From: a phage
Sequence record: PZ618369.1
DNA: 39,474 bases
Reading direction: 5' to 3' (one strand)
Positions within the stretch are counted from its first letter, which is position 1; each line of letters opens with the position of its first letter. The position numbers and the translations under genes were made by a program. This document shows, in pieces, positions 160 to 39,474 of this stretch. The notes beneath the pieces are model-generated. The model searched no databases and was not told the origin of the DNA. It saw nothing but the letters and a program-made list of their open reading frames with translations.

Positions 160-192
160 TGCAATCATGGTAACGATTCATGAGCGGAAGAC

Positions 193-235
193 CTAAGGTC
201 AGTACGTGGATAAAGACTCACTCTACTGACCTTAG
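193..235. repeat. perfect 12-bp inverted repeat (CTAAGGTCAGTA / TACTGACCTTAG), 19-nt spacer
   Basis: read directly from sequence. Confidence 0.7.
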
Positions 236-352
236 CTACTGTAGTCAAGGACTTTAGGTAACACCATTCAGGCTAACCTATGGTCTACCTACTGATTGGT
301 TCACTGGTCGTCATCCGATGGTCTCAGACCTACGGTCCTTGACCTACAGTAG
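236..352. repeat. imperfect 17/18-bp inverted repeat (CTACTGTAGTCAAGGAC ... GTCCTTGACCTACAGTAG) enclosing about 80 nt
   Basis: read directly from sequence; arms at 236-252 and 335-352. Confidence 0.55.
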
Positions 353-405
353 CTGGGTCCTTAAGGTAGGGACGATGAGTTTTGGACCAAAAGTTTGAGA
401 CCACA

Positions 406-3691: not shown

Positions 3692-6373
3692 ATGAGCGTC
3701 ATCTCTATTGACAAACACGACTTCTCTGACGTGTCGAATGCCATTGAGCCATTTAACCTGCTGGCTGACCACTACGGGCAAGACCTTGCAGTCAAGCAGC
3801 TTCAGCTTGAGCATGAGGCATACACTGAAGGCGAGCGACGTTTCATCAAGAACCTTGAGCGCCAGACTGAGCGCGGGGAACTGGCAGACAATCAGGTCGC
3901 CAAGCCTTTGATGCAGACTCTGGTCCCTAAGATTGCGCAAGCCGTCAAGGAGTGGCACGAAGGAAAAGACGGGAAGCTGTCAACCTCTCGCCCAAGCGTA
4001 GCGTTTACCATGCTGAGCACTGATGAGAAGGCTGTCAAAGACCGCTCTCTGCTCATCTCCTGTGGGTCTGCTGCGGTTATCATACTGAAGGTCATCCTCT
4101 CCAAGCTGGTCAAGCCTGAAGGGATACCGATTACACCGATGGCCTCAGCGATAGGCCGCACACTTGAAGATGAAATCCGCTTCGGTCGCATTCGTGACAA
4201 GGAGCGGGAGCACTTCAAGAAGGCGATAGCTGAGAACCTGAACAAGCGAGCCGGGGCATCCTACAAGAAAGCCTACATGCAAGCGGTTGAAACCTCCATG
4301 CTGGAGCAGGGTCAACTGGAAGATGCGTGGGGAAATTGGAGTCCTACCGAGGCGGTACACGTTGGCATCAAGATGCTTGAGATTGTCATCCAGTCTACAC
4401 AACTTGTCGAGCTTAAGCGTTATGGTGCTGGCAATGCATCGGCTGACGTTGAGATGGTCCACCTGTCAGACTTCTGGGTAAAGAAGATGGCACAACGTGG
4501 ATTCAGCCTCGCGGGTATCGCGCCAGTATATCAACCTTGCGTAGTACCACCTAAGCCGTGGACTGGTGTCGTGGGTGGTGGGTATTGGGCCAAAGGTCGC
4601 AGACCGTTGCCGCTGATTCGATTAGGGTCTAAGTCTGCGGTGGCACGTTACGAAGACGTGTACATGCCTGAAGTCTACGACGCTGTGAACATCATTCAGA
4701 ATACACCTTGGAAAGTGAACAAGAAGGTTCTGGACGTGGTGAACATGGTCGAGAAGCTGAACAACACACCTATTAAAGACATCCCGCAAATGGAACCACT
4801 GAAGCCTGAGGACTATGCAGGTGAGACTGAAGAGGAACTCAAGGCATGGAAGAAAGCTGCTGCTGGTATCTATCGTCGCGAGAAGGCCCGAAAGTCACGC
4901 AGATTGTCACTGAGCTTTATCGTTAACCAAGCGAACAAGTTTTCTCAGTTTAAGGCCATCTGGTTTCCGTACAACATGGATTGGCGAGGTCGCGTCTACG
5001 CTGTACCGATGTTCAACCCTCAGGGTAACGACATGCAAAAAGGCCTCCTGACTCTTGCGGTCGGCAAGCCTATTGGTTCCGATGGCTTCAAATGGCTGAA
5101 GGTACACGGTGCAAACTGTGCGGGTGTAGATAAAGTAACCTTCGAGGAGCGCATTAAGTGGGTGGAAGACAACCATGACAACATCATGGCTACCGCTAAA
5201 GCACCGATGGATAGCATTGAGTGGTGGGGCAAGTTAGGCTCCCCGTTCTGCTTCCTTGCGTTCTGCTTCGAGTATGCTGGCGTAATGCATCACGGATTGT
5301 CTTACTCATGCTCGCTGCCGATAGCGTTCGATGGGTCATGCTCTGGGATTCAGCACTTCAGCGCGATGCTTCGTGACCACATCGGTGGACATGCAGTAAA
5401 CCTGACGCCTTCCGGTAAGGTCCAAGACATCTACCGCATCGTGTCTGACCGCATTGAGGAGGAACTTAAAGTCCTGCTGGTTAACGGTACGGACAACGAG
5501 ATGGTGACTCAAGAGGACAAGAAAACAGGTGAGATTACCGAGCGTCTTAAGCTGGGGACACGAGAGCTTGCGCGCCAGTGGCTTACCTATGGTATGTCAC
5601 GAGAGGTCACTAAGCGTTCGGTCATGACTCTGGCATACGGGTCGAAAGAGTATGGATTCGCAGACCAAGTGTACGAGGATATCGTGATGCCAGCGATTGA
5701 CTCAGGGTCTGGCGCTATGTTCACCGAGCCAAGCCAAGCATCTCGCTTCATGGCTAAGATGATTTGGGAAGCTGTTAGTGTGACCGTAGTTGCTGCGGTT
5801 GATGCGATGAAGTGGCTTCAAGGTGCTGCCAAGCTGCTGGCTGCTGAAGTGAGTGACAAGAAGACAGGCGAAATCCTGAAGCCGTGCCTTCCTGTACATT
5901 GGGTCACACCCGATGGTTTCCCGGTCTGGCAGGAATACCGAAAGAAAGATACCACTCGTCTGAACCTGATGTTCTTAGGGTCATTCAACCTTCAGCCTAC
6001 CGTCAACAGAGGCACGAAGAAAGAGTTGGACAAGCACAAGCAGGAGTCAGGCATTAGCCCGAACTTCGTCCACTCACAAGATGGTAGCCACCTCCGCAAG
6101 ACTGTAGTCCACACGCACCGCAAGTATGGCGTGATGTCCTTCGCAGTGATTCACGATAGCTTCGGGACCATCCCGGCTGACGCTGAGTATCTGTTCCGTG
6201 GCGTCCGTGAGACGATGGTAGAGACCTACCGCGACAACGATGTGCTGCTTGACTTCTACGAGCAGTTTGAATACCAGCTTCACGAGAGCCAGCGCGACAA
6301 GTTGCCTGAGCTTCCGAAGAAAGGTAAACTGAATATCGAAGACATCTTGTCTTCAGACTTTGCATTTGCTTAA
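3692..6373 (+). CDS. 1: DNA-directed RNA polymerase, single subunit (893 aa)
   Basis: palm motifs and C-terminus ...HDSFGTIPADA...ILSSDFAFA match recalled T7 RNAP; size and position. Confidence 0.97.
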   Translation: MSVISIDKHDFSDVSNAIEPFNLLADHYGQDLAVKQLQLEHEAYTEGERRFIKNLERQTERGELADNQVAKPLMQTLVPKIAQAVKEWHEGKDGKLSTSRPSVAFTMLSTDEKAVKDRSLLISCGSAAVIILKVILSKLVKPEGIPITPMASAIGRTLEDEIRFGRIRDKEREHFKKAIAENLNKRAGASYKKAYMQAVETSMLEQGQLEDAWGNWSPTEAVHVGIKMLEIVIQSTQLVELKRYGAGNASADVEMVHLSDFWVKKMAQRGFSLAGIAPVYQPCVVPPKPWTGVVGGGYWAKGRRPLPLIRLGSKSAVARYEDVYMPEVYDAVNIIQNTPWKVNKKVLDVVNMVEKLNNTPIKDIPQMEPLKPEDYAGETEEELKAWKKAAAGIYRREKARKSRRLSLSFIVNQANKFSQFKAIWFPYNMDWRGRVYAVPMFNPQGNDMQKGLLTLAVGKPIGSDGFKWLKVHGANCAGVDKVTFEERIKWVEDNHDNIMATAKAPMDSIEWWGKLGSPFCFLAFCFEYAGVMHHGLSYSCSLPIAFDGSCSGIQHFSAMLRDHIGGHAVNLTPSGKVQDIYRIVSDRIEEELKVLLVNGTDNEMVTQEDKKTGEITERLKLGTRELARQWLTYGMSREVTKRSVMTLAYGSKEYGFADQVYEDIVMPAIDSGSGAMFTEPSQASRFMAKMIWEAVSVTVVAAVDAMKWLQGAAKLLAAEVSDKKTGEILKPCLPVHWVTPDGFPVWQEYRKKDTTRLNLMFLGSFNLQPTVNRGTKKELDKHKQESGISPNFVHSQDGSHLRKTVVHTHRKYGVMSFAVIHDSFGTIPADAEYLFRGVRETMVETYRDNDVLLDFYEQFEYQLHESQRDKLPELPKKGKLNIEDILSSDFAFA

Positions 6374-6385
6374 CAGGAGATAGTT

Positions 6386-6586
6386 ATGAAATTTGCACAC
6401 AAGCAGACTGGCGTTAATGGTGGGACTCAAATCGTGACCGTAACAGAACACAACGGGAAGGGTCTGGTGAAGACCACGGTCATCCCCACCGAGATGTCAA
6501 AGCAGCTTAACGTCCCGTTCAAGTGGCTGGTTAAGCAGGTTGAGCAGACACACGAGCAAGCTCTTAAAGAGGCGGCAACCAAATGA
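6386..6586 (+). CDS. hypothetical protein (66 aa), gene 1.05 region
   Basis: ORF track; lies between gene 1 and the phi1.1-type promoter where T7 has no gene. Confidence 0.55.
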   Translation: MKFAHKQTGVNGGTQIVTVTEHNGKGLVKTTVIPTEMSKQLNVPFKWLVKQVEQTHEQALKEAATK

Positions 6587-39275: not shown

Positions 39276-39294
39276 TAACTATCACTATAGGGAA
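39276..39294 (+). promoter_or_regulatory. phage RNAP promoter (right-end phiOR-type), TTAACTATCACTATAGGGAAGA
   Basis: consensus match, +1 G near 39290; downstream of gene 19. Confidence 0.7.
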
Positions 39295-39474
39295 GACCCC
39301 CGGTTACTTATAGTATTACTGTAGTGAATATACATATGCAGACTTTATGCAAGACCTTAGGAGGCAGACTCCGAGTTCTTACCTAAGGCTTGCACCGATG
39401 GAAGGAGGGTGATATTAATCATAATCCCTCCAATACAGATAGTAAAGACCATAGATACAGGAGGTATGTAGCAT

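Follow-up and report, generated by a model that had tools for sequence, protein, structure and literature searches.

Conserved inverted repeats in the concatemer junction of a K1F-like phage: a probable counterpart of the T7 M-hairpin

The window, meaning the whole stretch of 39,474 nucleotides that was analysed (PZ618369.1), is a complete, circularly permuted genome of a Kayfunavirus (K1F-like, Studiervirinae, T7 family), and it contains a single copy of the terminal repeat (TR). Its first 1.2 kb match 388 phage records, which belong for the most part to Kayfunavirus. The gene order is T7-type, the RNA polymerase is encoded by an ORF of 893 aa at 3692-6373, and the junction from the window's end to its start is exactly the same as in the relatives. 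The circularised assembly was opened at the ATG of the gene 19.5 homologue, which is an artificial cut; the same ORF is annotated gp19.5 in PE3-1. Between this homologue (1-159) and the TR (406-583) there is a non-coding gap of 246 nt, and the inverted repeats sit within it. The segment 187-372, to which the original prediction drew attention, is part of the concatemer junction of a K1F-like phage of the T7 family, between gene 19.5 and the TR. The features of the junction are as follows.

39278-39296, + strand: phage RNA polymerase promoter, equivalent of phiOR, ACTATCACTATAGGGAAGA; reads gene 19.5 and the repeat region rightwards
1-159, + strand: gene 19.5 homologue, 52 aa, last gene before the genome end (ORF; alignment with gp19.5 of T7, T3, K11 and phiYeO3-12)
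193-235, no strand assigned: H1, two-tier hairpin-forming inverted repeat, probable counterpart of the T7 M-hairpin
193-204/224-235, no strand assigned: lower stem of H1, 12 bp, perfect (inverted-repeat listing, DNA fold)
234-259/328-354, no strand assigned: H2, interrupted stem of ~24 bp (inverted-repeat listing and DNA fold)
234-259, no strand assigned: left arm of H2, which reads ACCTAAAGTCCTTGAC-TACAGTAGCT on the - strand and contains the AGTCAA box (repeats, fold)
260-327, no strand assigned: interior of H2, with short repeats such as AACCTATGGTCTACC; variable, and partly or wholly deleted in some relatives
328-354, no strand assigned: right arm of H2, ACCTACGGTCCTTGACCTACAGTAGCT (repeats, fold, alignment)
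357-373, + strand: small stem GTCCTTAAGGTAGGGAC then GATGAGTTTT, terminator-like by consensus scan only; variable in relatives
380-405, no strand assigned: pre-terminus box TTTTGGaCCAAAAGTTTGAGACCACA with a palindrome at 380-392 (TTTTGGaCCAAAA); invariant in relatives, ends at the left-end cleavage position
406-583, no strand assigned: direct terminal repeat, 178 bp (K1F left end TCTCACAGTT..., right end ...GAGTCTC); one copy, as in a concatemer junction
584-592, + strand: CATCTGTAT, matching the class II pause/termination motif ATCTGTT of the T7 concatemer junction (CJ); directly after the TR, once in the genome
607-670, no strand assigned: tandem array of the 15-bp unit AACCATAGGTCCTAC, 4.3 copies; left-end short repeats, counterpart of the T7 SRL (repeat listing)

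The position of the TR was mapped by the deposited ends of K1F and by the ends of other records. The left end of K1F (TCTCACAGTTCAAG...) corresponds to window position 406 and its right end (...GGTCTGTCTCTGAGTCTC) to position 583, while the Vec13 and SH3 records stop near 583 and the ECG4 and YZ1 records at 405. The repeats thus lie next to the genome end, as had been claimed. The TR has a length of 179 bp in K1F and of 183 bp in SH3, the latter by run-off sequencing (PMC4925675, the SH-phage paper). The pre-terminus box has counterparts (..AAAAATCTGAGTGACTA followed by TCTCACAG) in T7, T3, K11, fPS-59 and AP10. The class II CJ element ATCTGTT of T7 has been described (10.64898/2026.02.12.705533), and the PE3-1 record carries the annotation 'concatemeric junction' at a position near that of the 584-592 motif. 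Matches to ACTATCACTATAGGGA... number seven in the genome, all on the + strand, against 0.01 expected, and the place of the promoter at 39278-39296 equals that of phiOR in T7, T3 and K11. The description of the repeat region as non-coding also stands: a coding ORF was ruled out by the lack of any ORF of at least 40 aa within 197-381, and relatives show indels of 1 nt and of ~29 nt.

The gap contains two inverted repeats that are adjacent rather than nested. The first, H1, is the perfect 12-bp inverted repeat that had been reported; its arms are CTAAGGTCAGTA (193-204) and, as the exact reverse complement, TACTGACCTTAG (224-235). Its 19-nt loop consists of an unpaired C205, an upper mini-stem of 3 bp (206-208/219-221) with an apical loop at 209-218, and a bulged TC on the 3' side at 222-223. 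Folded as DNA, H1 has energies of -11.3 and -12.5 kcal/mol. An intrinsic terminator was ruled out for H1, as no T-run follows it. The second repeat had been given as a 17/18-bp pair, and CTACTGTAGTCAAGGAC at 236-252 does pair with GTCCTTGACCTACAGTAG at 335-352 with one bulged C, but this extent is too short, and H2 is really a stem of ~24 bp. It is built of 11 perfect pairs (234-244/344-354), the bulged C, 8 pairs (245-252/335-342), a 2x2 mismatch and 5 further pairs (255-259/328-332). The two arms of H2 are inverted copies of one 27-nt unit, ACCTAAAGTCCTTGAC-TACAGTAGCT against ACCTACGGTCCTTGACCTACAGTAGCT. The two stems are not enclosed one in the other as the word "nested" had implied; bases 234-235 are common to both.

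The arms of these repeats are made of a short motif that is concentrated around the TR. The four direct motifs quoted in the original prediction were located at 189, 326, 250 and 357, and they are copies of the short repeat ACCTAnRG. This motif has a density of 16 per kb in the gap and 11 per kb to the right of the TR (584-860), compared with 0.4 per kb in the rest of the genome, which is a 20- to 40-fold enrichment near the TR. Together with the 15-bp array at 607-670, this gives the distribution expected of T7-type short repeats, in which both flanks of the TR are rich and the genome elsewhere is poor.

The inverted repeats are real, conserved and far beyond chance, and they are of a kind already known from T7. 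A perfect inverted repeat of at least 12 bp within 150 nt occurred in 2 of 1000 dinucleotide-preserving shuffles of 160-405. The segment 185-375 folds as DNA well beyond shuffles on both strands, with -38.3 kcal/mol on the + strand (z -5.1) and -39.1 kcal/mol on the - strand (z -6.3), and none of 200 shuffles equalled either value; prediction of secondary structure had been put forward as a check, and its outcome favours the repeats. An Rfam scan of 1-1200 at E<=1 matched no family.

Conservation of the arms in related phages was complete for H1 and partial for H2. The element is present in 222 phage records; IMG/VR, metagenomes and GenBank supplied 37-38 distinct versions, which were aligned. 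H1 is kept in 37/37 distinct relatives, with arms invariant in 36 of them, and it forms in all 38 distinct sequences at -9.7 to -13.5 kcal/mol. The most divergent version is that of Citrobacter phage CR8, in which two H1 pairs are changed on both sides, C-G to T-A and A-T to T-A. Two pairs with double-sided changes are also found in H2. Over H1 and H2 together, 96% of the cells of the alignment pair, and 0/500 shuffles reach the observed count of double changes; the covariation within Kayfunavirus comes from one lineage, CR8, and the independent events are few. The loop of H1 occurs in three unrelated variants, CGTGGATAAAGACTCAC, TCATAGCTGACGCTAC and CGTGGGATAAACCCTCCAC, each with an upper stem of 3-5 bp, and the CTC/TC bulge on the 3' side is kept in all three. 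The distance from the start of H1 to the TR ranges from 178 to 237 across Kayfunavirus.

H2 is strong in most of the sequences, at about -19 to -30 kcal/mol, and weak or lost in 8 of the 38 (-7 to -15 kcal/mol), so the expectation that the arms would be conserved holds for H1 and fails in part for H2. The sequences with a weak H2 include those of the IMM-002-like phages, MopsHU1, PH1061, CHRF_30116.1 and ST10. These have lost the interior and have changes in the right arm, with no compensation and no evident replacement. The H2 interior, 260-327, is the most variable segment of the gap. Where only one side of an H2 pair has been substituted, the + strand has G.T at four pair columns and A.C at one, and these one-sided changes suit a role in RNA or on the + strand better than a model based on the - strand. 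Scans of IMG/VR and metagenome contigs with the pattern of the pre-TR box returned the same clade only (23 loci and 12 more), and blastn with the CR8 version found CR8 and EcpYZU01 only.

Hairpins are found at the same position in other genera. In the equivalent gap of T7 the sole substantial inverted repeat is AGGGATTCAGCGGTATGAT-tgc-ATCACACCACTTCATCCCT at 39568-39608. It starts 30 nt past the 19.5 stop and has its midpoint 190 bp to the left of the start of the TR (39778), and the corresponding values for H1 are 34 nt and 192 bp. A hairpin repeat 3-45 nt past the 19.5 stop is present in T7, T3, phiYeO3-12, K11, AP10, fPS-59, gh-1 (where the gene is a positional counterpart) and an IMG/VR contig. 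T3 and phiYeO3-12 have an outer stem identical to that of T7, and their inner bases differ by compensatory change, with the same four mismatch positions. K11 has the T7-type outer stem and a longer top. The stems of the Yersinia phages AP10 and fPS-59, of the IMG/VR contig and of Pseudomonas phage gh-1 are CTTTAAGTG/CACTTAAAG, AGTTAATTAT/ATAATTAACT, GGTAATCATGG/CCATTGATTACC and GCTCAAT/ATTGAGC. The AP10 loop, GGATAAAGACTC, resembles that of the window. A scan with the pattern AGGGATTC-N15-40-CATCCCT gave mostly chance matches, with at least five distinct usable hairpins of T7 or K11 type among the matches listed.

The 19.5-to-TR gap as a whole is prone to folding in these phages. It folds better than shuffles in 9/9 usable lineages (K1F left out), with z from -1.6 to -5.5, and the window is at the extreme. 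A second repeat of longer range between the hairpin and the TR is found in K11 (23 nt at 87%), T3 (12 nt), phiYeO3-12 (13 nt) and fPS-59 (~10 bp), and none of these can be aligned with H2. A fixed spacing of ~190 bp between hairpin and TR was considered and rejected, as the distances of 190 bp in T7 and 192 bp in the window are accompanied by 184 in T3, 210 in phiYeO3-12 and 145 in K11. Because the spacing varies in this way (145-210 bp), the agreement between T7 and the window is owed partly to luck.

The hairpins favour the strand that is not transcribed. In nine of ten types the hairpin is the more stable on the - strand, a bias behind which there are few independent lineages; the energies are -11.1 against -7.2 kcal/mol in T7, -11.0 against -8.4 in K11 and -9.3 against -7.3 in T3. 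Read on the + strand, the T7-, T3- and K11-type hairpins have C.A, A.C and pyrimidine-pyrimidine mismatches; on the - strand the mismatches are G.T and tandem G.A, which accounts for a gain in stability of 2-4 kcal/mol. As the - strand never serves as mRNA in these phages, this preference argues for a role in DNA. Within Kayfunavirus the H1 stem is perfect and so carries no information on the strand.

The position and shape of H1 suggest that it corresponds to a hairpin proposed for T7 concatemers. Chung, Nardone and Hinkle are said to have proposed in 1990 that a hairpin end found on concatemers is a processing intermediate. They reportedly mapped this hairpin to an inverted repeat ~190 bp to the left of the mature left-end cut, and are said to have suggested that it primes the synthesis by which the TR is duplicated. 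We take the T7 repeat at 39568-39608 to be the best candidate for the M-hairpin, and its computed centre, 190 bp from the start of the TR, fits that figure. The T7 'M-hairpin' adjoins gene 19.5 (PMC2680503). Deletion of the M-hairpin region impairs concatemer processing (Kim, Kim and Chung 1997, as cited in PMC2680503), although the M-hairpin is dispensable for viability (PMC2680503). The proposal that the repeats are a packaging or concatemer-processing signal is accordingly the best of those originally offered, and it gains support from their position, which equals that of the presumed T7 M-hairpin. H1 lies in the gap between gene 19.5 and the right-hand TR, its hairpin is stable beyond chance (the 2 in 1000 shuffles given above), and its pairing is kept by compensatory change, with few independent events. 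The stem of H1 has no sequence similarity to the T7/T3/K11 hairpin (AGGGATTC...CATCCCT), and only the CTC/TC bulge on the 3' side and the AGTCAA box, which directly follows the hairpin in T7, T3 and K11 also, are alike. The basis for homology is position and shape, the stems being unrelated.

On balance we favour the view that in Kayfunavirus H1 corresponds to the T7 M-hairpin and would fold back as single-stranded DNA for concatemer processing and duplication of the TR. It has the place and the shape of the M-hairpin and probably does the same job, with an unrelated stem and with a lineage-specific long repeat added. From the T7 literature and from reasoning, we infer the following course for a duplication primed by the hairpin. 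The DNA to the left of the single TR would become single-stranded during concatemer processing, through nicking and strand displacement. One strand would then fold back at the repeat; in T7-type hairpins the bottom strand is the more stable, and its 3' end would point rightwards. The fold-back could prime or redirect synthesis across the ~190-bp gap and the TR, so that one TR would become two, one for each of the neighbouring genomes. The new copy would be the TR of the next genome, while the displaced top strand would leave a TR to the genome on the left. The terminase would then cut at 405/406 and 583/584. H2 would be an accessory, lineage-specific part that may lend stability to the folded single strand, or may instead have its function in the phiOR transcript. 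Long spacers disfavour the spontaneous extrusion of cruciforms from duplex DNA. The spacers here are 19 nt in H1 and 68-82 nt in H2, and extrusion is therefore unlikely and an exposed single strand is probably needed. Any role of the element would be auxiliary, because the T7 element is dispensable and most genome-end loci of T7 were non-essential in a knockout screen.

The main alternative is that the stems, and H2 above all, act in the rightward phiOR or late transcript, as an RNase III site, a 3' stabiliser of the gene 19.5 mRNA, or both. The region is transcribed from the phage promoter at 39278-39296 and followed by the pause motif at 584-592, and an RNA fold of 160-600 retains both stems (z -4.3). 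Interrupted duplexes of ~24 bp are in the size class of RNase III substrates; H2 has such a duplex, beyond the length of about 20 bp looked for on the transcribed strand, and cleavage there is putative. Where one side of an H2 pair is substituted, the transcribed + strand has G.U at four columns as opposed to A.C at one. A stem-loop between the last gene and the TR is labelled 'R13; putative RNase III recognition site' in the gh-1 record, but that stem-loop hardly beats shuffles (z -1.0 and -2.0). Loss or weakening of H2 in 8 of 38 sequences with no evident replacement is also difficult to accommodate, and so are the mismatches in T7, T3 and K11, which are C.A, A.C and pyrimidine-pyrimidine on the + strand and G.T and G.A on the untranscribed one. 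No Rfam family matches, and none of the ten mapped RNase III sites of T7 is known to lie past gene 19.5; the part of the T7 record that was checked, 5800-6550, has no RNase III sites annotated. As an explanation of the element this reading is unlikely, though H2 may be an RNA element (a processing site or a 3' stabiliser) that stands outside the DNA fold-back.

There are three further explanations. The arms could be opposed copies of the short repeat ACCTAnRG/GTC that are bound as duplex by a protein of the phage or of the host, such as the gp18 small terminase during packaging, with the hairpin as a by-product. The original suggestion of a protein-binding site is right to the extent that the arms are made of the enriched motif (16 per kb in the gap and 11 to the right of the TR, against 0.4 elsewhere), which also forms direct arrays across the TR at 607-670 and in the short-repeat arrays of T7; in addition, the H2 arm sequences are kept even where their complementarity is reduced, and the AGTCAA box is common to several genera. 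What it leaves without account are the compensatory changes in H1 and the replacement of whole stems. CR8 has changed both partners of two H1 pairs, the loop variants retain an upper stem with unrelated sequences, and the stem at the H1 position is wholly different in T7/T3/K11, AP10, fPS-59 and gh-1 with its pairing kept. Such turnover is unexpected for a sequence-specific site unless the protein co-evolved, and we regard this explanation as quite improbable. A leftward sigma-70 promoter on the - strand, with TTGACT (248-243), a 17-nt spacer and TAGAGT (225-220), would fire into H1 antisense to gene 19.5. This would account for the invariance of 220-249, and the two hexamers, with 9/12 matches in a consensus scan, are invariant in 37/37 relatives, including CR8 with its five differences in the spacer. 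TTGACT also occurs on the - strand to the right of the hairpin in T7, T3 and K11, and T7 has an annotated leftward promoter, A0, across the TR. However, promoter-like matches in 1-1300 are not above shuffles (4 against 1.9 +/- 1.4), the equivalents of the -10 hexamer are poor in T7 (TGTGAT), T3 (TGTAGT) and K11 (TGTATG), and the left arm of H1 and the right arm of H2 are left unexplained, all of which makes such a promoter very unlikely. The remaining proposal, a secondary origin of replication, draws on the nearness of the genome end and of a phiOR-type promoter, the phiOR region being part of the right-end secondary origin of T7. That origin has a phage promoter followed by an AT-rich region, an arrangement that is missing here: GC is 0.42-0.50 across 151-400 with no AT-rich stretch for unwinding, and the promoter at 39278-39296 is ~350 nt upstream, beyond gene 19.5 and outside the region. 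Primase-type sites on the + strand are only mildly enriched (4 in 246 nt). The idea of an origin, which had been among those first put forward, is thus scarcely credible.

The fold-back reading of H1 may extend beyond Kayfunavirus. As a tentative generalisation, which we hold to be possible rather than probable, most or all Studiervirinae would share one DNA element that is defined by structure and free of sequence. It would be a two-tier hairpin with a pyrimidine bulge on the 3' side, located after the last gene and acting on the bottom strand, which is never transcribed, as a fold-back primer or turnaround that duplicates the TR. If so, the H1-H2 pair of Kayfunavirus would be its clearest natural example. 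The opposite biases, with G.T on the - strand in H1-type hairpins and on the + strand in H2, would then mark DNA-level and RNA-level signals within one 170-nt segment. To our knowledge, the way in which the single TR of a concatemer junction gives rise to two copies in T7-like phages has never been fully settled, and under this generalisation the question could be addressed with strand-asymmetric mutants of the arms (G.T against A.C).

The hairpin model goes back to a few T7 papers of 1990-1997 that are rarely cited now, and the term 'M-hairpin' appears in a single paper of the literature searched. Eight named phages of seven genera and one contig retain a hairpin at this place as a structure, although the sequence of its stem has turned over completely. 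The parts of the analysis that merit further work are this structural conservation across genera and the strand asymmetries. K1F-like phages have an unusually clean version of the element, and the two findings together lend comparative support to the hairpin model and offer a convenient system for mutational tests. K1F-like phages are also engineered and rebooted for therapy, and trimming of their 'non-coding' ends touches 187-405, which is conserved and probably functional.

Comparison with known systems places the element closest to the T7 M-hairpin, the subject of papers by Chung, Nardone and Hinkle (1990, J Mol Biol 216:939), Kim and Chung (1996) and Kim, Kim and Chung (1997, Virology 236:37). 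Both are non-coding inverted repeats ~30 nt past gene 19.5 with a centre ~190 bp to the left of the right-hand TR, and both are two-tier, have a pyrimidine bulge (TC/CTC) on the 3' side and lie between phiOR and the CJ pause site. They differ in that T7 has an imperfect 19-nt arm and a 3-nt loop, while Kayfunavirus has a perfect stem of 12 bp and a 19-nt loop; the stems are unrelated, and Kayfunavirus adds a second, long-range repeat of ~24 bp right behind the first. The 'R13' element of gh-1 (GenBank NC_004665) is similar to H2 in being the longer, second stem-loop, which follows a short hairpin past the stop of the last gene and precedes the TR. It has no sequence similarity to H2, its assignment is putative, and its stem is barely above shuffles. 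The arrays of ACCTAAAG-type repeats beside the TR of T7 are presumably the SRL and SRR of Dunn and Studier (1983). Heptamers like ACCTAAAG are found there on both flanks of the TR, and the arms in the window use the same kind of motif; beyond direct arrays, however, the window has some of the copies arranged as the long inverted pairs H1 and H2. By analogy only, the proposed fold-back resembles the rolling hairpin of parvoviruses and AAV and the telomeres of poxviruses, where a terminal or sub-terminal inverted repeat folds back and its 3' end primes copying. In contrast to these, the repeat in the window is internal, ~190 bp from the cut, its hairpin would exist on concatemers for a short time only, and the mature genome ends in blunt direct repeats and not in hairpins.

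The left-end cut of the phage genome is bordered by an invariant box that probably serves as the cleavage or terminase recognition sequence. The box and the features around it, given in window coordinates, are as follows.

248-220, minus strand, leftward: sigma-70-like sequence TTGACT-17-TAGAGT
357-373: terminator-like stem GTCCTTAAGGTAGGGAC, then GATGAGTTTT
380-405: candidate recognition box TTTTGGaCCAAAAGTTTGAGACCACA, its 3' limit being the left-end cut
584-592: CATCTGTAT, one base past the end of the terminal repeat (406-583); single occurrence in the genome
607-670: 15-bp tandem array of AACCATAGGTCCTAC, 4.3 perfect copies, just right of the terminal repeat and pause site

The box contains a 6+1+6 palindrome at 380-392, and related boxes are found in T7, T3, K11, fPS-59, and AP10 (..AAAAATCTGAGTGACTA|TCTCACAG). 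On the other side of the terminal repeat, the sequence at 584-592 agrees with the class II pause/termination motif of the T7 concatemer junction, ATCTGTT. The tandem array resembles the short-repeat array at the left end of T7 and corresponds, at this end of the genome, to the short repeats from which the inverted repeats are built. Beyond 670, less exact copies of its 15-bp unit continue to about 727. The terminal repeat of Citrobacter phage CR8 (L031, 2011-2101) has a 21-bp tandem repeat, AGACTTCTAGATAACCTCTAG, in at least four copies reaching the end of the record; this repeat is not present in the terminal repeat of the window.

The non-coding gap at 160-405 has four T7-primase-type sites ([GT]GGTC/GTGTC) on the plus strand in 246 nt, or 16 per kb versus 4.6 per kb genome-wide, and GGTC overall is enriched about fourfold around the terminal repeat, although both figures rest on small numbers. 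Across the relatives GATGAGTTTT is conserved, while the sequence of the stem preceding it is variable. Both hexamers of the leftward promoter-like sequence are unchanged in 37 relatives, and the CR8 spacer differs at five positions. The AGTCAA box also comes after the hairpin in T7 (TAGAGTCAAG), T3, and K11.

The loop of H1, the inverted repeat at 193-204/224-235, occurs in three mutually unrelated sequence variants (window 205-223; L004, L019, L031) with nearly identical flanks. In all three, a small stem still forms in the upper part of the hairpin, and the CTC/TC bulge on the 3' side is kept. Some relatives have an additional small ORF between gene 19.5 and H1 (K1F, L004, 516-602; L009, L015, L017, L028; L025, L029, L059), for example MDEESYGSFSEEDYKTEWEYAH in K1F, or alternatively a longer hydrophobic ORF. 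In these genomes H1 begins a few bases past the stop of the inserted ORF.

Pyrimidine bulges similar to that of H1 are found in the hairpins of T7, T3, K11, and gh-1. Two stem-loops lie in Pseudomonas phage gh-1 (L111).

656-694: two-tier hairpin GCTCAAT...ATTGAGC, 3 nt past the last gene
701-770: following stem-loop, labeled in GenBank 'R13; putative RNase III recognition site'

In H2, the adjacent long-range inverted repeat (234-354), one-sided changes lead to G.T on the plus strand in four pair columns versus one for A.C. In the T7-type hairpins (T7, L001 669-709; T3, L067 675-715; K11, L069 835-879), the minus strand has G.T and G.A, the plus strand A.C and C.T. H2 and the hairpins of T7, T3, and K11 thus have opposite strand biases.
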